Assembly (NCBI GenBank): GCA_018303505.1
Contig: JAGVYA010000040.1
Location: forward strand, 6,809-70,808
Reading direction: 5' to 3'
DNA length: 64,000 nt
Source of the DNA: Candidatus Woesearchaeota archaeon
GTDB taxonomy: Archaea; Nanobdellota; Nanobdellia; Woesearchaeales; GW2011-AR4
The position numbers and the translations under genes were made by a program. Position 1 is the first letter of the stretch, and every line of letters starts with the position of its first letter. Below the pieces are notes generated by a model. That model saw nothing but the letters and a program-made list of their open reading frames with translations, searched no databases and had not been told where the DNA came from. Positions 10,703 to 52,160 of the stretch are shown here, one piece after another.

Positions 10703-10823
10703 ATACTCACGGACAAAAAATATTGAACAATTGTTGTCCATTCGTAATATGTCGGAAATTGCAAAAATGTATAATAAATTGTTACAATTTCCGAGCATGC
10801 TCAAAAATCTTTGATTTTTGACA
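10703..10823. repeat. Copy A of a conserved intergenic element of about 125 bp (two hairpins plus the GAGCATGCTC palindrome), upstream of fabI
   Basis: It shares TATACTCAC..., an exact 20-mer TTCGTAATATGTCGGAAATT and an exact 22-mer ATTTCCGAGCATGCTCAAAAAT with copy B at 52022-52160. Both hairpins carry compensatory substitutions between the copies. Confidence 0.7.
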
Positions 10824-17373: not shown

Positions 17374-18126
17374 GCATACCCCCTACACATTGGAAATACT
17401 TATCGATTTTTAAAGGTATAGGGTTGTAATAGAAAGACCATTTAATAACTTGAATTGATATCATAAGGTAACCTCTTTTCCTATATTTTTATATCTTGAA
17501 GTATTATATTTAAATATATTTCGTTTATTAGTGCTTTTTATCAAATCTCTGGTAAGTCAAATATAAACTCAATTTTTGCATTTGTGAACTACAAACAGTC
17601 ATCTTAAAAGGCTTAAATTCTGCCTTGTCAAAAATCATAGATTTTTGAGCATGTTCAAATTCTGCTGAATTGGTAAGTCTTGTGTAATTACTGCCCTTTA
17701 AAATGGCAGAATTTGCCCATTTTAACCCTTAAAAAGCCATTCTAGGAACGAAAGGTTTATATAGTTAGGCTCTCTAAAAATCATGGGTTTAAATACTATT
17801 TTATCGACTATAAATTTGGGGTTTTAATAATTTTCATATAAACCGAAATTAGACATAAAACTAGATGGATTATGTTGATTAAATAAATTAATGAGTTAAA
17901 ATAAAAAATAAATTAAATTTGCATTAAACAAATTAAAAATTATAAAAAAATAAACGAGAGCGACCTTTAGATTAACAAGTGAATAAGGTGACCCGCTTTT
18001 AATTTTTTTATTGAATACATAGGCGAGGCGTAAATTAATGGCAGACAATTTACGCCGAGCATTAAAATTTGTTGCCGAAGGCAACGGATTGAAGATAAAA
18101 GTAAATTAAATCAAATTAAAAGATAA

Positions 18127-22712: not shown

Positions 22713-23379
22713 TGAAAAAAATAATAGCCCAAGGTGCAGAAGCAAAATTATTCTTGGAAGATAATAAAATTATCAAAAATAGATTTTTAAAATCATACAG
22801 GATTAAGGAAATTGATGAAAGATTGAGGGGCTTCAGAACAAGGAGAGAAGCGCGAAGATACTGCAAAAATTAGAAGGAATAAATTTTCCAGCTCCAAAAT
22901 TAATCAATAACGATGAAAAAGAAAACTTACTGATTGAAAAGATTGATGGAAAATTAATTAAAGATATTCTTGAAAAAGCCGATTACGGAAAATTATGCGA
23001 AGAAATTGGAAGAAAAATAGCAATTTTGCACAACAACTCAATAATACACGGCGATTTAACAACATCAAATATGATATTAAACAAAGAAACGTCGATAAAT
23101 CGCAAAGCGATTTTCGATCGTGCTCGAAAATCTATGATTTTCGACATTTATTTTATTGACTTTGGGTTGTCGTTTTTTTCTGAAAAAGCTGAGGATAAAG
23201 CTGTTGATTTGCATCTATTAAAAGAAGGGCTTGAATCAAAGCACTACAGAATATGGGAAAAATGTTTTAAGTACGCTCTTGAGGCTTACAAAAAAGAAGC
23301 AAACAAAAGCAGTGAAACATTAAAACGGCTTGAAATTGTTGAAAAAAGGGGGAGATATCGTGCAAGGAAGGGAAGTTAA
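22713..23379 (+). pseudogene. bud32: KEOPS kinase Bud32 (Kae1-associated Ser/Thr kinase) with a 1-nt deletion frameshift near 22855
   Basis: The N-terminal part (MKKIIAQGAEAKLFLED...RTRREAR) is followed by a stop. The -1 frame continues KILQKLEGINFPAPKL...HGDLTTSNMIL...IDFGLS, with the catalytic loop and DFG motif. It may be an intact gene with a sequencing error. Confidence 0.65.
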
Positions 23380-24238: not shown

Positions 24239-24310
24239 GCAGCAGTAGTTTAGTGGTAGAATATACGACTGTGGCTCGTATGGCGCGAGTTCAATTCTCG
24301 CCTGCTACCC
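24239..24310 (+). tRNA. tRNA-His(GUG)
   Basis: G(-1) plus acceptor GCAGCAG/CTGCTAC with one C-A mismatch at 2:71. D-loop AGTGGTA, anticodon arm TACGA-CTGTGGC-TCGTA, T-arm GCGAG-TTCAATT-CTCGC, discriminator C pairing with G-1. No intron. Confidence 0.75.
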
Positions 24311-24336
24311 TATATAAATTTAGGGAGGAATTGAAA

Positions 24337-24933
24337 ATGTTAACTGAGAGAAGATTGCAAATTGGAGTGATGGGTTCAGCACAAGACCTTAACTACAGCA
24401 GAAATTTAGAGGAACTAGCAGAAGAAGTTGGTAGTTGGATAGCTAGAGGAGGTGCAATACTTGTATTTGGAGCAGAAAAAGATTATGATAGTTTATCAAC
24501 AGCTGCTTGTAGAGGCGCAAAGAAAGAAAGAGGACTAACAATTGGTTTTACTTATGGCAGAGGCAAAGATATTTACCAAAAAGACGCAGATATAATTGTA
24601 GTGACTGGTATGGAACGAGGAGGGGGCAGAGAGTTTGTGCTAGCAGCAAGCTGTGACTGCATGATAGCTTTAAGCGGCGGCTCTGGCACATTAAACGAAC
24701 TTGTTGTAGCATACCAATTAGGAATTCCCATGGTAGCTTTAAAAGGTACGGGAGGATGGGCAGAAAAACTTGCTGACCAATATTTTGATGCAAGACAAAG
24801 ACTGAAAGTTATTGGTGCAGACACACCAAAAGAAGCTGTTGAAATAGCATTTGAACAAGGTGGGAAATACATAGCTAAATTTAGATATAAAACATATGTT
24901 AGTCCTGAAAGTGGGTTAACATTTTTGAGATGA
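24337..24933 (+). CDS. LOG/TIGR00725-family Rossmann-fold nucleotide-binding protein
   Basis: GVMGSA and SGGSGTLNEL motifs, with a GGAGG Shine-Dalgarno sequence before the ATG at 24337. The longer ORF from 24187 is rejected because it runs through tRNA-His. Confidence 0.55.
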   Translation: MLTERRLQIGVMGSAQDLNYSRNLEELAEEVGSWIARGGAILVFGAEKDYDSLSTAACRGAKKERGLTIGFTYGRGKDIYQKDADIIVVTGMERGGGREFVLAASCDCMIALSGGSGTLNELVVAYQLGIPMVALKGTGGWAEKLADQYFDARQRLKVIGADTPKEAVEIAFEQGGKYIAKFRYKTYVSPESGLTFLR

Positions 24934-25698
24934 TTGAAAATGTACCGTGAAAATATCTATGATGTTATCAAAGCAACAGGGGAAAGAGTAACAACTTTAG
25001 TTATTCCTAAAAACACAGGACTAAAAGGATATGCTTGGCAAGTTTTGAAAGAAGCAGGACTCGATTTAGGTAATGCAAAACAAATAGACAAAGCTACATT
25101 AAAAGTTGGAGATATAGATATAACTCTATTGTTAAGAAGAGGTGAAGATATACCGCAAATTGTGATGGACGAATTTAGATTAGGAAACATAGTGTTAGGT
25201 GTAACCGGCGATGATTTACTGGATGAATATCGTTTAAGGAATCCTGAAAATACCCTTAAAGTTGAGAACACATATGACTGGTATGACGAAAATGCAAGAT
25301 TCAATAGACCTGCGCTTTCTTTTGTTAATAGGAATGGTGATGTAAATGATATACCTATTGAAGCAAGAGTAGCAGTTAATGGAAAATACGAATATAACGG
25401 GAGATTATATCTTTCAAAGAGCCCTTTATTGAAAGGTAGAAAATTTATATTAACAGTTTATAATGGTGATTTAGAAGATAGAGTTGCAAAAGGGGCAAAT
25501 GACTGTTGCATTGATACAGTTTACACAGGAACTACAATTGACACAATTGATGAATATGGATTAAGGATAGTAGAAATTATAAGGTTTAGCGACCTTGTGG
25601 TTATATCAGCTTTAAGAAAAGATAGTTCAAAATTGCTTGAACTTATGGCAAAAGATATCCCAAGAGGACCCGTAATAGAAAGAAATAAATTTAGTTAA
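24934..25698 (+). CDS. hisG: ATP phosphoribosyltransferase (HisG) homologue
   Basis: The N-terminus LVIPKNTGLKGYAWQVLKEAGLDL and the signature region AKGANDCCIDTVYTGTTI match the HisG PROSITE-type motif. No other his biosynthesis genes are nearby. Confidence 0.6.
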   Translation: MKMYRENIYDVIKATGERVTTLVIPKNTGLKGYAWQVLKEAGLDLGNAKQIDKATLKVGDIDITLLLRRGEDIPQIVMDEFRLGNIVLGVTGDDLLDEYRLRNPENTLKVENTYDWYDENARFNRPALSFVNRNGDVNDIPIEARVAVNGKYEYNGRLYLSKSPLLKGRKFILTVYNGDLEDRVAKGANDCCIDTVYTGTTIDTIDEYGLRIVEIIRFSDLVVISALRKDSSKLLELMAKDIPRGPVIERNKFS

Positions 25699-25724
25699 TT
25701 ATTTAAACAAAATACAAGATGTGA

Positions 25725-27005
25725 TTGGTTATGAACCTTCAAATACCAAAAGGAACACGTGATTTTTCACCAGAAGAGAAAATAGTTATGGATAAGATAG
25801 TCAGCACTCTAAAAGAAGTTTTTGAGCTTTATGGGTATGCGCCTTTAGATACTCCAATTCTTGAAAGATTTGACGTTTTGTCATCAAAATATGCAGGAGG
25901 AGCTGAGATATTAAAGGAAACATTCAAGCTGAAAGACCAAGGCAGCAGAGAGCTTGGCTTAAGATATGATTTAACAGTTCCAATGTGCAGGTATATTGCT
26001 ATGAATCCGACAATTAAGATGCCTTTTAAAAGATATCAAATTGGTGAAGTCTTTAGAGACGGCCCTGTTGCTTCTGGAAGGTACAGGCAGTTCACCCAAT
26101 GCGATGTTGATGTTGTCGGCTCTTCCTCCATGTCAGCTGATGCAGAAATAATTGCTTTGATTTACGTTGCATTCTGCAAATTAAATTTTGAAGTCAATAT
26201 CAAAGTGAACAATAGAAAATTGTTAAATGACATTCTGAATTATTGCGGCATTGAAAAAAGCAAGCAGGAAAATGTTATTTTGTCTATTGATAAACTTGAA
26301 AAGTTAGGTATTAATGTTGTAAAAAATGAATTAAAAGAGCAGAAAATAGATATTGGCAAGATAGACAAAATAATCAACATAATAAACATTAAAGGAAACA
26401 ACAGCGAAAAAATATCTCAATTAAAAAAAATTTTAAAAGATTCCAGAGGATTAAATGAGATTGAGCAATTGTTATCCTATTTAAAAAATCTTAATTTTGA
26501 AGCTGATTTTGATGTTTCTCTTGCAAGAGGGCTTGCTTATTACACAGGCGCTGTTATTGAAACATTTTTGAAAAGCAGCAGCGTTAAAAGCGCAGTATGC
26601 GCAGGCGGCAGATATGACAATATGATTGGAGCTTTCTTGGGCAAAGGAAATTATCCAGCTGTGGGAGTCAGCTTTGGAGTTGACAGAATTTATGATGCAG
26701 TTGTTGAAAAGCAAAAGACAAAACGAAAAACTAACGCTAAAGTTTACATAATTCCAATCAAAACCTTGAATGAGGGCATGAAAATAGCGCAGCAGTTAAG
26801 AGATGCTGGAATTAACACAGACATTGATTTGATGGACAGAGGCCCAAGCAAAAATCTTGAGTATGCAAATTCATTAGGCATTCCTTATGTTGTTTTTGTC
26901 GGAAAAAAAGAATTGCAGGAGAATAAAGTAAAGTTAAGAGATATGAAGATTGGGAAAGAAGAAATGTTTGATATCAATGATATTATTAGGAAATTGAAAA
27001 GTTAG
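25725..27005 (+). CDS. hisS: Histidyl-tRNA synthetase
   Basis: Class II aaRS motifs, the N-terminus IPKGTRDF and an anticodon-binding C-terminus. Length is 426 aa. Confidence 0.85.
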   Translation: MVMNLQIPKGTRDFSPEEKIVMDKIVSTLKEVFELYGYAPLDTPILERFDVLSSKYAGGAEILKETFKLKDQGSRELGLRYDLTVPMCRYIAMNPTIKMPFKRYQIGEVFRDGPVASGRYRQFTQCDVDVVGSSSMSADAEIIALIYVAFCKLNFEVNIKVNNRKLLNDILNYCGIEKSKQENVILSIDKLEKLGINVVKNELKEQKIDIGKIDKIINIINIKGNNSEKISQLKKILKDSRGLNEIEQLLSYLKNLNFEADFDVSLARGLAYYTGAVIETFLKSSSVKSAVCAGGRYDNMIGAFLGKGNYPAVGVSFGVDRIYDAVVEKQKTKRKTNAKVYIIPIKTLNEGMKIAQQLRDAGINTDIDLMDRGPSKNLEYANSLGIPYVVFVGKKELQENKVKLRDMKIGKEEMFDINDIIRKLKS

Positions 27006-46531: not shown

Positions 46532-48022
46532 TTAGTACCCCTTCCCAAACACTGCCCAGAATTTAGCTTCTTTTCCGCATTGAACACAATTTCCTTTTGC
46601 AGCTTTCTGCTCAAATGGAATGCATCTGCAGGTTGCTCCCTCTGTTTTGTTTTTTATAGAACTTTCACATTCATCGTGTCCACAGAATAATGCTTTAGCC
46701 ATTTTTTTGCTTTTTATAACATTTACAAAATCATTAAAGTTATGCACTTCAACAGTGCTTTTGGTTAAATATTCTTTTGCTTTTTTGAATAGATTATCCT
46801 GTATCTCATTCAATGTTTGCTCAACTTTTTTTTCCAAATCTTTTGTTTTGATTGTGGTTTTTTCATTATTGTCCCTTCTGGCTAAAACAAGCTGCTCAGC
46901 CTCAACATCTTTTGGGCCAATCTCTATCCTTAATGGCACTCCTTTTAGCTCCCATTCATTGAATTTCCAGCCCGGTGTGTAGCCGTCCCTGTCGTCAAGC
47001 TCAACACTATAATTTTTGGCTTTTAATTTTTTGACTATTTCCTTGGCTTTTGCAATAATATTCTCCTTATTTTCCTTGAAGACAATCGGCACAATAACAA
47101 TATGCACTGGGGCTATTTTTGGGGGCAAAACCAATCCTTTGTCATCCCCATGGGCCATGACAATAGCCCCTATTGTTCTCGTGCTTAACCCCCAGGATGT
47201 CTGCCATACATATTTCTCTTTTTCATCCTTATCCAAGAATTTTATGTCAAATACTTTTGCGAAATTCTGCCCAAGCAAATGGCTTGTGCCCATCTGCAAT
47301 GCCTTGCCATCAGGCATAAATGCTTCAACTGTTGTTGTGTAGTCAGCGCCAGCAAACTTTTCCTTGTCAGTTTTTTTGCCTGCAATGACTGGGATTGCCA
47401 TGAAATTTTCAATCAAATCAACGTATTCAAACAGCTGCTGCATTACTTCTCTTTCAGCGTCTTCTCTTGTTGCATGCGCTGTATGGCCTTCCTGCCATAA
47501 AAATTCTCTTGTTCTTAAGAAAGGCTTTGCGTGCTTGAACTCCCACCTTACAACAGAATTCCACTGGTTTAAAAGCAATGGCAAGTCTCTCCAAGATCTA
47601 ATCCATTTTGCATAGCTTTCATACATAATTGTTTCTGATGTAGGCCTTATGGCTAATTTTTCATTTAATTCTGTGTCACCAGCTTTTGTAACCCATGCGA
47701 CTTCTGGATTAAATCCTTTAACATGCTCTGCTTCTTTCTTTAGCAAGCTTTCCGGTATGAACATAGGAAAATAGCAGTTTTTGTGCCCTGACCTTTTTAT
47801 TTTATCGTCAAAAATTTTCTGGATTTTCTCCCAGATTGAATAAGAATTTGGCTTGAAGATAATGCAGCCTGATACAGAAGAGTAATCAATCATGTCTGCC
47901 TTTAAGACTATCTGGTTGTACCACTCGTTAAAGCCTTCTGATTTTTTTACCGATAAGCCAGCGACTTGTGAGCGAGTTTCGCTTCGCTCACTCGCATTCG
48001 ACTGTTCTTCTTTTTGTTCCAT
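46532..48022 (-). CDS. proS: Prolyl-tRNA synthetase, archaeal/eukaryal type, with an N-terminal extension of about 28 aa encoded by a GC-rich hairpin-forming segment
   Basis: Class II motifs and the C-terminal zinc-binding CGHDECES...C. The canonical start region ...EGFNEWYNQIV is preceded by MEQKEEQSNASERSETRSQVAGLSVKKS. Confidence 0.85.
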   Translation of the reverse strand: MEQKEEQSNASERSETRSQVAGLSVKKSEGFNEWYNQIVLKADMIDYSSVSGCIIFKPNSYSIWEKIQKIFDDKIKRSGHKNCYFPMFIPESLLKKEAEHVKGFNPEVAWVTKAGDTELNEKLAIRPTSETIMYESYAKWIRSWRDLPLLLNQWNSVVRWEFKHAKPFLRTREFLWQEGHTAHATREDAEREVMQQLFEYVDLIENFMAIPVIAGKKTDKEKFAGADYTTTVEAFMPDGKALQMGTSHLLGQNFAKVFDIKFLDKDEKEKYVWQTSWGLSTRTIGAIVMAHGDDKGLVLPPKIAPVHIVIVPIVFKENKENIIAKAKEIVKKLKAKNYSVELDDRDGYTPGWKFNEWELKGVPLRIEIGPKDVEAEQLVLARRDNNEKTTIKTKDLEKKVEQTLNEIQDNLFKKAKEYLTKSTVEVHNFNDFVNVIKSKKMAKALFCGHDECESSIKNKTEGATCRCIPFEQKAAKGNCVQCGKEAKFWAVFGKGY

Positions 48023-48075
48023 TGTATTTTAGACTCTTTATTTGCTTATATAAAGATTTTGGTTATTAATAAAAA

Positions 48076-48279
48076 TGGGGCTGCGAAGATTCGAACTCCG
48101 GCCACGAGGCTTCTCATAACTGCGAACGAAGTGAGCACTCGAGACTTTATGTCTCGCAAAGACTTGAAAACCTTGCGTTTTCAAGTTCCCAAAAATGCCA
48201 AAGGCATTTTTTAGGACGTCAACTGATTTCGCGGTTGCCCGAACCCCGGATACTGCCAACTATACTACAGCCCCAATCT
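48076..48279 (-). tRNA. tRNA-Pro(CGG) with an intron of about 130 nt at the canonical 37/38 position
   Basis: On the minus strand: acceptor GGGGCTG/CAGCCCC (7/7), canonical D-arm GTAT-AGTTGGCA-GTAT, anticodon stem CGGGG/CCTCG, loop TTCGGG|G, variable loop TGGC, T-arm CGGAG-TTCGAAT-CTTCG, discriminator A. The spliced product is 72 nt. The intron contains at least three clean hairpins (AATGCC-TTT-GGCATT, GAAAAC-GCAAG-GTTTTC, GAGAC-ATAAA-GTCTC). Confidence 0.7.
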
Positions 48280-48320
48280 TTGTGTTTAATCGCGATATTT
48301 AAACATTTTCAAGAAAAATT

Positions 48321-50531
48321 TTATTTAACTTGTATTATTCCGGAATATCCCAAGCCTTCAACTTTGTATTTGTTAGTTGTTGAATTGAGAGTACATTTGT
48401 AGAATCTTTTTGTGCTCCTGCCATTGCATCTAATTTTAAATTCCATTCTTTTATTGCATTTACTGCTTATGTTGCTTATTGACGGAATATTGTCATCTTT
48501 AATACAAAGTTTGTTTAGCGAAACATTAATCTTATCAACATACAAAGTTTTTCTCGTTCCTTCTGGCATTCTCAAGCCTCTGACAAAAAATGAGCCTTTT
48601 TGATTTGGCAATTGCTTATCAATTGTCAAATTTGTTAAATTCAACACATTCTTGGAAAAATTAAAATCAAATTCGATTATTGTCAAGTTTGCATCAAAAA
48701 ATCTAACTCTAAAACTTTCATTAAAAAACCTTGATAAATCACTTGAATTTCCAATAAATATTGTAAGATTAATTGTTGATGTATTTACAGATTTTTCATT
48801 GCCGATTAGCTTATCAATAATGTCATTAATTCCATCGTTATCTATATCATTTTCCGAAGCATTAAGAATGGTTATTTTGAAGACAAGAGAGTCACTAAGA
48901 AATCCGTCTGAAACAATGGCTTCTAAAACATATTCGCCACTGTCATTTGTTGTTGTATTCCATTGAAAAACATTAAAGCTATTTGAAAATTTTGAAAAGT
49001 TAATTGAAAAAGACAGTTCATCTTCATTTGGATCAGAGGCTGAAAGGTTTATTATTATCTTAGCTGTCTCGTTTATTGTAATATTATTAATTGGCTCTAA
49101 AGTTGGCTTTTTATTTAATTTTATTATAAGCCTTTCAGCATTATTGCTTTCGTTTAGCTCTTCTACAAAATCGTTTAAGTCAGCAATGGCTGTTATTTCA
49201 AAGTCAGAGAAATTAGTAAAATTAAATTTGTGGACTATTTGTGAGTTGACATTCAATAAATTGGATTTGTTTGTTTTTGTGAATGTGTTATTATCAAAAA
49301 TTTCTGCAAAAACATTGAATGCGTGCTTATTTCCTGTGTTTTTTATAATGACTTCAATTGATACATTGTTAATTCCATAATGATATTCGCCAGAAGCTGA
49401 AATATTAACAATCAAATCAGGCAAATTTGGCTTGTTAAAATCATTAAAATTATAGTTTCCAGTTATATAAGCATTATTTATTAAGTCCACTAAATTTCCA
49501 TTTTCAAAAAGTTTGGTATATTTCACAATAAAAGGCCCATTGAGCTTTTTGCCATATATCTTTGAGCCATTAATTAAAATTGAAAGGTTATTATCTCCAA
49601 ATGCTAAGAAAAAGGTTGTATTTTTTATCTCAACAATATTGTCGAATAAATCGTACAATCCTAGCAATATATTGTAATGATTGTCATTAAATATTTTGGC
49701 ATTTGCATTAATCTGAAGCAAATTGAACTCGTCGTCATTGTCTGTATCAATTCCTGTGTCTGAGAATTCGGATAAATAAGCTGTTTCGGCAAAATCCCTG
49801 AAATCGTAGAATGAAATCACTGCATTTATTTTGATTACCTTTTTGCCAATTTTTACAGAAGAAATATTAAAATTTCCAATATAGTGCGTTCTTTTTATTG
49901 TTTCATTGTCAAAATTAAATATTAAGTCTTGAATTGAATTTGTTATTGTTTTGTTTTCCTTAATAGAAATTATTGAATTGTTATAAGCTAAAAACAATAT
50001 TGTTTCAAAAGTTCCATTAATATACGAGTTTATAGTTACATTTACTTTTAACATTTTATCAACCTTTGAATCCTTGATGCTTAATATTTCAAATCCTTTT
50101 TCATAATTTGTGTATTCTTGTGTCAAGATATTGTCTTTTCTATATTTTAGACTGAAGCTCGAATTGTAAATTTTTACTGAGTAATTGAACTGATTTTGTG
50201 ATAAAAGTATGGTATTGAGCATTATATTCAATTTATTTATTCCGGCATTTAAAGTAACATTTGTTTCATTTGTTAAGATTCCATTTTTATCTAACAGATT
50301 AATTACAAAAATAAAAATGTCATCTGCATTGTTTGTTGTCAACTCAAAAACTAAAGTGTCGTTAATGCCATTGCTGTTTTTGTCAATCATGAAGTCTTTG
50401 AACTCAGTCACATTCATTTGCGGCGATGTTGCTGAGAAAGAGTATCTTGCTATTAAATCTTTAATCGAGAGGGAGTAAGCTACTGGAATTAGAAATAAAA
50501 CAACTAAAAATATTACCACCCCTTTGCTCAT
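48321..50531 (-). CDS. Large Asn-rich secreted or cell-surface protein (736 aa)
   Basis: Signal peptide, many N-x-S/T sequons and repeated beta-rich segments. Confidence 0.5.
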   Translation of the reverse strand: MSKGVVIFLVVLFLIPVAYSLSIKDLIARYSFSATSPQMNVTEFKDFMIDKNSNGINDTLVFELTTNNADDIFIFVINLLDKNGILTNETNVTLNAGINKLNIMLNTILLSQNQFNYSVKIYNSSFSLKYRKDNILTQEYTNYEKGFEILSIKDSKVDKMLKVNVTINSYINGTFETILFLAYNNSIISIKENKTITNSIQDLIFNFDNETIKRTHYIGNFNISSVKIGKKVIKINAVISFYDFRDFAETAYLSEFSDTGIDTDNDDEFNLLQINANAKIFNDNHYNILLGLYDLFDNIVEIKNTTFFLAFGDNNLSILINGSKIYGKKLNGPFIVKYTKLFENGNLVDLINNAYITGNYNFNDFNKPNLPDLIVNISASGEYHYGINNVSIEVIIKNTGNKHAFNVFAEIFDNNTFTKTNKSNLLNVNSQIVHKFNFTNFSDFEITAIADLNDFVEELNESNNAERLIIKLNKKPTLEPINNITINETAKIIINLSASDPNEDELSFSINFSKFSNSFNVFQWNTTTNDSGEYVLEAIVSDGFLSDSLVFKITILNASENDIDNDGINDIIDKLIGNEKSVNTSTINLTIFIGNSSDLSRFFNESFRVRFFDANLTIIEFDFNFSKNVLNLTNLTIDKQLPNQKGSFFVRGLRMPEGTRKTLYVDKINVSLNKLCIKDDNIPSISNISSKCNKRMEFKIRCNGRSTKRFYKCTLNSTTNKYKVEGLGYSGIIQVK

Positions 50532-52021: not shown

Positions 52022-52160
52022 TATACTCACCCACAAAAATTATTGGGTATTGTTATGGGTTCGTAATATGTCGGAAATTTTTATTATTCATTAATTTTGC
52101 AAAAATTTCCGAGCATGCTCAAAAATTCCATCATGTATTCGTAAATTGGAATTTTTGACA
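52022..52160. repeat. Copy B of the conserved intergenic element, upstream of polB, followed by the odd palindrome TTGACAGTCAA
   Basis: See copy A at 10703-10823. Exact 20-mer and 22-mer matches, plus covarying hairpins. Confidence 0.7.

Follow-up and report, generated by a model that had tools for sequence, protein, structure and literature searches.

A tRNA-Pro(CGG) gene with a 127-nt intron and a palindromic element in the downstream proS gene of a Woesearchaeota archaeon

We analyzed a stretch of 64,000 nucleotides from a Candidatus Woesearchaeota archaeon (GenBank assembly GCA_018303505.1, contig JAGVYA010000040.1, positions 6,809 to 70,808; hereafter the window, in whose own numbering positions are given), in which a tRNA-Pro(CGG) gene interrupted by a 127-nt intron lies upstream of proS, the gene for prolyl-tRNA synthetase (ProRS). 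The structure of the tRNA gene, a series of homologous genes in relatives, and multiple copies of a palindromic element, one of them within proS, were directly observed. These findings are probably best explained by a functional tRNA-Pro(CGG) gene with a protein-spliced intron of the bulge-helix-bulge (BHB) type that has grown to 127 nt, its length being a by-product, and by an insertion of the element into proS. Loci of relatives (L numbers) were collected by scanning genomic and metagenomic contigs with ProRS and by looking up single ProRS proteins (P numbers).

The tRNA-Pro(CGG) gene and its intron

The tRNA-Pro(CGG) gene is encoded on the minus strand at positions 48274–48076. Its joined exons form a perfect 72-nt cloverleaf that is recognized by ARAGORN as tRNA-Pro(cgg), with a 7/7 acceptor stem (5′ strand at 48274–48268), the D-loop AGTTGGCA and the T-loop TTCGAAT. 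The 5′ exon (48238–48274; positions 1–37, 37 nt, GGGGCTGTAGTATAGTTGGCAGTATCCGGGGTTCGGG) and the 3′ exon (48076–48110; positions 38–73, 35 nt), which ends in a discriminator A and does not encode the CCA, flank an intron of 127 nt at the canonical 37/38 position (48111–48237), supported by intron-less alleles and a strict BHB scan. The insert thus sits one nucleotide 3′ of the anticodon, between GGTTCGGG and GCCTCG. A putative archaeal promoter with a B recognition element (BRE) and TATA box (AAAATGTTTAAATAT, minus strand, 48295–48309) was read from the sequence upstream of the gene. The last base of its TATA-like TTTAAATA lies 21 nt before G1, and the motif AAAA(T/G)(C/G)TTTAAATA is also found 5′ of the homologous tRNA genes in L082, L083, L174, and L175. 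Immediately 3′ of the gene, a T5 tract (minus strand, 48071–48075) is a probable terminator.

This gene is readily overlooked. Default ARAGORN on the window reported a tRNA-Leu and a tRNA-His only, and Rfam the tRNA-His only, with nothing between 47800 and 48400 even at E ≤ 10; ARAGORN with introns allowed reported tRNA-Pro(cgg) at c[48075,48275]. ARAGORN itself placed the intron at 39/40, with a length of 105 nt, and drew a long extra arm; this placement was rejected, as the intron-less alleles support 37/38. In L172, L173, L082, and L176 the sequence CCGGGGTTCGGGGCCTCGTG is uninterrupted, i.e. CCGGGGTTCGGG is followed directly by GCCTCGTG, and the splice junction is fixed because these alleles have exactly the same junction. 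If spliced, the mature tRNA would read GGTTCGGG followed by GCCTCGTG across it. Gene and intron are base-for-base identical in five other independent metagenome assemblies (six in all), and are therefore no assembly artefact. A preliminary description of the window had proposed a tRNA-Pro(CGG) with an intron of approximately 130 nt between positions 37 and 38; both the gene and the intron position are borne out by these data, while its location of the acceptor 5′ strand (48273–48279) is replaced by the one given above. A minus-strand open reading frame (ORF) of 73 aa (48038–48259) overlaps the whole tRNA gene and its intron, and it should be left out of gene annotations.

When folding is constrained to the cloverleaf, the intron ends pair as AAC.CGCGAA and UUCGC.GUU in a closing stem, P1. 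Its 5′ strand (AACCGCGAA, minus strand, 48228–48236) pairs with the 3′ strand (TTCGCAGTT, minus strand, 48118–48126), and all 8 pairs are kept in L083. The intron sequence UGAG (minus strand, 48113–48116) provides the 3′ strand of a BHB central 4-bp helix, in which the partners U32 U33 C34 G35 form the pairs U32.G, U33-A, C34-G, and G35.U, next to the 5-bp anticodon stem as outer helix (constrained fold and strict scan). The resulting bulges, G36 G37/C and A A/G38, would be cut after the second nucleotide of each, which is the canonical geometry. A strict BHB scan, demanding 4/4 central pairs and an outer helix of at least 3, recovers the 127-nt intron with H=4 and h=5, and the same scan recovers the 13-nt introns of L174 and L175 as well as the T-loop introns of L083, L002, L084, and L001.

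Folded on its own, the intron reaches −42.4 kcal/mol (z = −4.4 relative to shuffled sequences) and forms P1, a short stem P2, and three perfect hairpins on the minus strand: H1 (48188–48216, 9 bp, AAAAATGCC/GGCATTTTT, containing a T5 tract at 48191–48195), H2 (48162–48187, 10 bp, ACTTGAAAAC/GTTTTCAAGT), and H3 (48140–48156, 6 bp, CGAGAC-AUAAA-GUCUCG). The at least three perfect hairpins announced in the preliminary description are therefore present, with stems of 9, 10, and 6 bp instead of 5–6 bp. In the window as a whole, 27 perfect hairpins with stems of at least 8 bp were counted, compared to 9–22 in shuffles; three of the 27 fall within 250 nt here (Poisson P ~2e-4), and the hairpin in proS is the only GC-rich one among them.

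A BLAST search with the intron against all loci gave a match in L083 only, with the first 21 nt exact. The first 28 nt of the intron core are identical between the window and L083, though the tRNA exons differ, and without a stretch of 55 nt (minus strand, 48162–48216) the two introns align at 91% identity. As the 55 nt absent from L083 correspond exactly to H1 and H2, the window intron consists of an L083-type 74-nt core plus two inserted hairpins. All core pairs that P1, P2, and H3 have in the window can also form in L083 (19/19), compared to pairing of ~30% in slid controls. In L083, H3 reads CGGAGC-AUAAA-GCUCCG, with three pairs changed on both sides and an unchanged AUAAA loop. The observed covariation is reached by 64 of the 500 shuffles, a comparison of two sequences only and thus of little statistical power; because only these two sequences carry the core, selection and hairpin-biased mutation are not distinguishable. 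A derivation of H1 and H2 from the T-loop intron of relatives was considered and rejected, as local alignments were no better than shuffles.

These structural features raise the question of whether the intron has a function of its own, as a stable, possibly circular structured RNA after excision or as a guide or regulatory RNA. Its stability relative to shuffled sequences, the retention of P1, P2, and H3 with three compensatory pairs and an invariant loop, and the identity of the first 28 core nucleotides in spite of differing exons would be expected of such an RNA, and a circular form would read ...TATGAGAA followed by CAACCGCG across its junction. Nevertheless, we consider a functional intron unlikely. 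It contains no exact box C, no CUGA (box D), and no ACA box after a hairpin, and has no Rfam match at E ≤ 10; H1 and H2 are lacking in the only homologous long intron; the covariation has only the limited statistical power described above; and the nearest ProRS relatives have either no 37/38 intron or one of 13–18 nt. A group I intron does not fit, at only 127 nt and with no Rfam intron family at E ≤ 10, given that the conserved catalytic core of these self-splicing introns comprises ~200 nt or more. Published archaeal tRNA introns range from 11 to 129 nt, with medians of 12–25 nt (PMC4090602). The window intron, which had been described as unusually long, is at the top of this range and therefore extreme but inside it.

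It is considerably less probable still that the tRNA gene is disrupted or in pieces, either as a pseudogene broken by inserted DNA or as a split gene whose 5′ half ends at the intron T5 tract. This tract equals the gene's terminator, and the L001 contig contains only the 3′ part of the gene. Against this, neither exon is damaged and both agree with the intron-less alleles, the splice sites are put in register by P1 and the central helix, and the gene is identical in all six assemblies. Moreover, the halves are contiguous on one strand behind one promoter-like motif, with none before the 3′ exon.

proS and a dispersed palindromic element

The proS gene (minus strand, 46532–48022) encodes an archaeal/eukaryotic-type ProRS of 496 aa, identified by Pfam and NCBIfam TIGR00408. 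All three Pfam domains expected of the protein are present, and its match to TIGR00408, from residue 25, reaches 634 bits; its homology to PDB structures begins at residue 26, corresponding to residue 9 of Thermus ProRS. Its sequence is identical to that of a database protein designated proline--tRNA ligase of “Candidatus Woesearchaeota archaeon”. Approximately 120 close ProRS homologues derive from Woesearchaeota or Nanoarchaeota metagenome bins. As stated in the preliminary description, proS follows the tRNA-Pro gene head-to-tail, its start lying 53 nt after it. A BRE/TATA-like promoter (AAAATCTTTATATA, minus strand, 48047–48060) is present at the same distance from the ATG in ten of ten aligned relatives, and the motif AAAATCTTTATA(T/A)A precedes every aligned proS regardless of the upstream gene. 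In the window it falls between the T5 tract of the tRNA gene and the ATG, and for these reasons tRNA-Pro and proS look like separate transcription units.

Within the 5′ end of proS, codons 8–21 consist of a copy of the palindromic element (SNASERSETRSQVA, minus strand, 47960–48001), which is in frame and stop-free. The 42 nt have a GC content of 55%, compared to a window mean of 34.8%, and the inverted repeat GTGAGCGA/TCGCTCAC at 47968–47991 forms the arms of the copy, as a hairpin from +32 to +55 of the coding sequence that folds at −21.3 kcal/mol. Relative to other proS genes, the 42 nt replace one codon at codon 7/8, a net gain of 39 nt or 13 codons. Nearly all ProRS relatives are 482–483 aa long and start with MEQKEEQLGLTVKK, and a tail of ~12 aa is already present there. 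The residues SNASERSETRSQ(V/L) are inserted after MEQKEEQ in the window, P0003, and P0018, and a decayed version is found at the same place in P0021. In total, the insertion occurs in 4 lineages and is lacking in ~110 of the ~120 relatives. If the insert is translated, the protein would contain SNASERSETRSQV. A search with the 30-aa N-terminus against 1.84 billion representatives gave no match, as expected for so short a query.

Copies of the element were sought by a pattern search followed by an nhmmer profile in ~1.1 Mb of sampled DNA, biased to the proS neighbourhood, and were found at five distinct sites (E-values 6e-17 to 3e-8). The element takes the form ...ATGCGAGTGAGC, a variable centre, and CTCGCTCACAA(C/G)TC(A/G)C..., with the same core arms GTGAGCGA/TCGCTCAC and imperfect outer arms CAGTCGA...TCGCTG, and its copies fold at −15 to −26 kcal/mol on both strands. 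Besides the proS start (codon 7/8, +13 codons, in the window and the other carriers), it is present in reverse orientation at the proS 3′ end of L082, where it adds VSCERVSNEAHSH between zinc-binding cysteines; in an intergenic position 17 nt 5′ of the tRNA-Pro gene of L173; in L083 at positions 192–247; and within the tRNA-Pro intron of 122 nt in L179, again present in the independent Logan assembly of that locus, L180 (E = 3e-8). The ProRS P0031 has the same 13 residues in its C-terminal zinc loop as L082 (2 lineages; filled and empty sites of 45 vs 6 nt). Both coding insertions thus measure exactly 13 codons and are stop-free in opposite orientations, and neither falls within the conserved fold, one being located before residue 26 and the other in the loop that separates zinc-binding cysteines.

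Between the window and L161, 40 of the 42 element positions are identical, compared to 79.6% for the rest of proS, and only 0.2% of 42-nt windows reach that value; with L162, which is equally distant overall, only 23/42 are identical. The carriers do not form one branch of the ProRS tree. Simple vertical descent would account for this pattern less well than recent spread or copy correction. The element pattern gave 0 matches in viral contigs, and the element-encoded peptides yielded no candidates in the protein database. In the literature searched for palindromic repeats or transposable elements of the miniature inverted-repeat type (MITEs) in DPANN archaea we found no description, and the element appears to be undescribed in these organisms, with the Rickettsia palindromic elements (RPEs) as nearest analogues.

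Judged by these comparisons, the ProRS “extension” of the preliminary description is a copy of a dispersed palindromic element. The description was right that a GC-rich inverted repeat encodes part of the ProRS N-terminus. Its extension of about 28 aa is reduced to 13 added residues on an existing tail, is lineage-specific rather than conserved, and comes from a hairpin that is repeated in a tRNA intron, a spacer, and a C-terminal loop.

The position of the hairpin early in the proS mRNA, its stability, the better conservation of the element DNA than of the flanking coding DNA, and the linkage of tRNA-Pro to proS in many lineages could point to a cis-regulatory element (an attenuator or a ProRS autoregulatory operator) that acts with the upstream tRNA gene. 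We regard this as highly improbable. The ~110 of 120 close ProRS genes do without the hairpin, a stem change in L163 is uncompensated, and the stem is lost in L162. The element also occurs reversed at a proS 3′ end, in an intergenic position, and in a tRNA intron, its loop lacks an anticodon-like GG and varies among the copies, and in L161 and L163 other genes lie upstream, with no tRNA-Pro in the limited upstream sequence covered. Although the cbf5 pre-mRNA of Crenarchaeota carries a BHB-type intron and the window copy folds in silico with a bulge AAU, a 4-bp GCGA/UCGC helix, and a bulge AAG on the opposite strand, we find it hardly credible that the same endonuclease would remove the proS insertion from the mRNA as another BHB intron, as excision at these bulges would take out 31 nt and cause a frameshift leading to a TAA stop, the other five copies do not retain this bulge geometry, a strict BHB scan of the proS mRNA finds nothing, and both coding insertions are 13 codons long and stop-free, as expected if they are translated.

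Two further observations concern palindromes. In L083 (positions 88–237), the element copy supplies the ATG of a 49-aa ORF starting with MRVSSLRTRSQLT..., which is probably spurious; the case shows that the element can create putative start codons. A second, intergenic palindrome, TTTCCGAGCATGCTCAAAAATC, often followed by NNN-GATTTTTGA, is found in the window at 10787–10821, 17628–17655, 23109–23144, and 52104–52127, and once in L001 (~800–830); it may serve as a terminator or as a site for protein binding.

Intron turnover and linkage of tRNA-Pro to proS

In total, 14 homologous tRNA-Pro(CGG) genes were identified in close Woesearchaeota, in lineages whose ProRS is 78–93% identical to that of the window. 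The 37/38 intron is 127 nt long in the window, 122 nt in L179, 74 nt in L083, 18 nt in L162, L178, and L001, and 13 nt in L174 and L175; L172, L173, L082, L002, L084, and L176 have none. Introns at a second site, 59/60 in the T-loop, measure 50 nt in L083, 45 nt in L002, 31 nt in L082, 30 nt in L084, 29 nt in L173, 22 nt in L178, and 18 nt in L001, and are absent from the other seven genes including that of the window. The introns are patchily distributed over a ProRS distance tree: the closest ProRS relatives of the window have no 37/38 intron or one of 13–18 nt, whereas the more distant L083 shares the window-type intron. The 37/38 and 59/60 introns showed no similarity to each other. The tRNA-Pro genes of close Woesearchaeota show rapid intron turnover, and the 14 homologues offer a rare close-range view of archaeal tRNA introns being gained, grown by nested hairpins, and lost.

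The 59/60 introns (18–50 nt; L083:1032–1081, L002, L082, L084, L173:3442–3542, L178:4806–4919) have good BHB geometry, and the T-loop-intron genes are not reported by ARAGORN with introns allowed. The window gene and these versions in relatives are missed by standard tRNA finders and Rfam, and DPANN tRNA sets are therefore likely to be under-called, so that inferences on completeness or decoding could be wrong. In L001 (2190–2352; ProRS 88–89% identical), proS is immediately preceded by the 3′ two-thirds of tRNA-Pro(CGG) alone, which have introns of 18 nt at both sites, and the 5.4-kb contig contains no GGGGCTG acceptor strand anywhere; this is either a gene in decay or one half of a split tRNA. 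At two other DPANN loci (L009:2344–2602 and L031:1322–1631), ARAGORN called tRNA-Trp(CCA) genes with introns of 183 and 234 nt, boundaries as called, which exceed the published archaeal length range.

The linkage of tRNA-Pro to proS was surveyed with ARAGORN in 170 non-redundant proS-centred loci (1.02 Mb). Thirteen of the 30 tRNAs called are tRNA-Pro (CGG, GGG, or TGG), each of them located upstream of proS and on its strand (binomial P ~2e-8 for an expectation of 3/46, calculated on loci that are not phylogenetically independent). Most of the long-intron and T-loop-intron genes come on top of these 13. The arrangement is seen across DPANN and Bathyarchaeia, which suggests a conserved and so far unexamined tRNA-synthetase linkage. 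In the close clade, inserted genes make the spacer between tRNA-Pro and proS vary between 40 nt and 3.5 kb; L173 has tRNA-Pro, a tRNA-binding-domain protein, proC, proA, proB, and proS, in this order. Two carriers of the proS insertion have other genes upstream of proS, namely proline biosynthesis genes in L161 and an unrelated ORF in L163, and no tRNA-Pro was found in the limited upstream sequence covered there; the proS insertion and the tRNA adjacency are independent.

The window had been thought to hold two cases of a tRNA next to its cognate synthetase. The pairing of tRNA-Pro and proS stands, and a non-random linkage is supported for it. The tRNA-His(GTG) gene (plus strand, 24239–24310; ARAGORN and Rfam) lies 1.4 kb upstream of hisS (plus strand, 25725–27005; score above the TIGR00442 cut-off), and a HisG-like ORF (24934–25698; below the NCBIfam cut-off) intervenes, so that the two genes are linked without being adjacent.

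Other features of these neighbourhoods were recorded. A 736-aa Asn-rich CARDB-domain protein (48321–50531) adjoins tRNA-Pro upstream, and the order CARDB protein, tRNA-Pro, proS is common to the window, L174, and L175. Amino-acid biosynthesis genes stand beside or between tRNA and synthetase in L173 (3592–8452), L161 (1–3991), and the window (24239–27005). A conserved non-coding block of ~50 nt, TATGCAAAGAGTTGRTTGCCTTCCGCGTTTGCAAT...TTTCTAGATT, lies between a MarC gene and tRNA-Pro in L001 (2130–2180), L173 (3236–3290), and L176 (~2275–2330), and is not present in the window. Toxin-antitoxin-type pairs (RHH/PIN, HicAB, UPF0175/DUF3368) are found beside proS in L175 (6308–6944), L176 (6335–6756), L174 (8534–9325), and L172 (1598–1798). 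Small insertions appear to have a hot spot in the surroundings of proS.

Proposed mechanism and comparison with known systems

That the tRNA is spliced, that the insert is translated, and that the element is mobile are predictions read from the sequence. Transcription would start from the tRNA's own BRE/TATA box, ~25 nt upstream, and in the precursor P1 would bring the intron ends together. U32–G35 would pair with the intron UGAG, giving the two 3-nt bulges GG/C and AA/G, both of which would be cut by the splicing endonuclease, after which an RNA ligase would join the exons and CCA would be added. The length of the intron would be an evolutionary by-product and not a device, and a palindromic element of ~40 nt would have landed in frame in the unstructured N-terminal tail of ProRS and be translated there. 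A regulatory role for the intron or the proS hairpin is not supported. The copy in L179 shows that tRNA introns and tolerant protein loops can both act as sinks for hairpin DNA, and because that copy lies inside a tRNA-Pro intron, nested hairpin insertion would be the most economical account of the growth of the window intron.

Several observations weigh against this interpretation. One unpaired A faces the 5′ bulge (a 3x1 loop), so the BHB motif is relaxed, and the inner helix is off register (h'=0 in the strict scan). Unconstrained folding prefers other local pairing, and the BHB form is not chosen by free energy itself; at −66.9 kcal/mol, the BHB conformer is 2.7 kcal/mol costlier than the constrained optimum of −69.6 kcal/mol. 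RNA folding, the means proposed in the preliminary description for locating the motif, thus yields a 4-bp helix with two 3-nt bulges that can be formed, in a relaxed version that is not the thermodynamic optimum. In addition, the intron T5 tract equals the terminator of the gene in length and could cause premature termination. Second copies of each intron hairpin and of the proS hairpin were sought in the window and none was found, and the sampled loci contain no further copy of H1 or H2 either. The similarity of the 3′ part of the intron (CGAGTG/CTCAC) to a collapsed copy of the element is not significant (p ≥ 0.11); it is therefore the relative L179, and not the window, that connects intron and element. 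The element has no clear target-site duplication (filled and empty sites of 42 vs 3 nt and 45 vs 6 nt), and a transposase was not identified, none having been searched for. Finally, the sampled loci are all proS-centred, and the 64-kb window holds one copy of the element.

More tentatively, and with somewhat less than even confidence, the ~40-nt hairpin family may be actively mobile in Woesearchaeota and persist where it is cost-free, i.e. in tRNA introns and, in frame, in disordered tails and loops. If so, such elements would drive the inflation of DPANN tRNA introns from ~13 to more than 120 nt and add peptide segments to housekeeping enzymes, as an archaeal counterpart of the RPEs, and the conservation of the element above that of its host gene would reflect recent spread or copy correction. 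The occurrence of one palindrome in a tRNA intron, at two places in ProRS, and in spacers points to an undescribed small archaeal repeat class that is able to alter proteins.

Archaeal BHB tRNA introns are cut by the EndA splicing endonuclease and their exons are joined by an RtcB-type ligase. The window intron resembles those at 37/38 in its position, the central 4-bp helix, the two 3-nt bulges cut after the second nucleotide, and the canonical tRNA exons. It differs in its length (127 nt vs a median of 12–25 nt; PMC4090602), the opposing unpaired A, and an interior of three hairpins in place of a single helix or guide RNA. DPANN lineages are reported to show frequent disruption of tRNA genes and a broadened specificity of their endonucleases, and a survey ties extra-loop DPANN endonucleases to marked tRNA gene disruption and relaxed motifs (PMC5829648).

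In the Thermoproteales and ‘Caldiarchaeum’, non-canonical and multiple tRNA introns have been gained and lost (PMC4090602, PMC3293823). Presence or absence at the canonical and the T-loop site of one gene, and a gain associated with inserted DNA, are common to both cases; here the host belongs to DPANN and the inserts are nested short palindromes, compared to a 1.8-kb recombinase-bearing element there. The archaeal tRNA-Trp intron is, like the window intron, long, structured, and located at 37/38. That intron, in Euryarchaeota, nests a box C/D small RNA, while the window intron is without C, D, C', and D' boxes or an Rfam match, belongs to another isoacceptor, and is missing in the closest relatives.

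Repetitive extragenic palindromic (REP) elements have a conserved GTAG-type head and are mobilised by RAYT (TnpA-like) transposases. The element described here is similar to them in size (~35–45 nt) and in its imperfect hairpin form; REP elements are extragenic, whereas this element also lies inside coding sequence, and no RAYT gene was noticed here, none having been sought. In that respect it is closer to the RPEs and prokaryotic MITEs, which insert in frame into genes (PMC10969869). Unlike these, it has no visible target-site duplication or partner transposase, and it differs from the RPEs in its length (~40–48 nt vs ~100–150 bp), its archaeal host, its small known copy number, and its one copy in a tRNA intron. 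What it has in common with both is a short palindromic repeat at unrelated sites, in frame and stop-free in both orientations, in surface parts of an essential protein.

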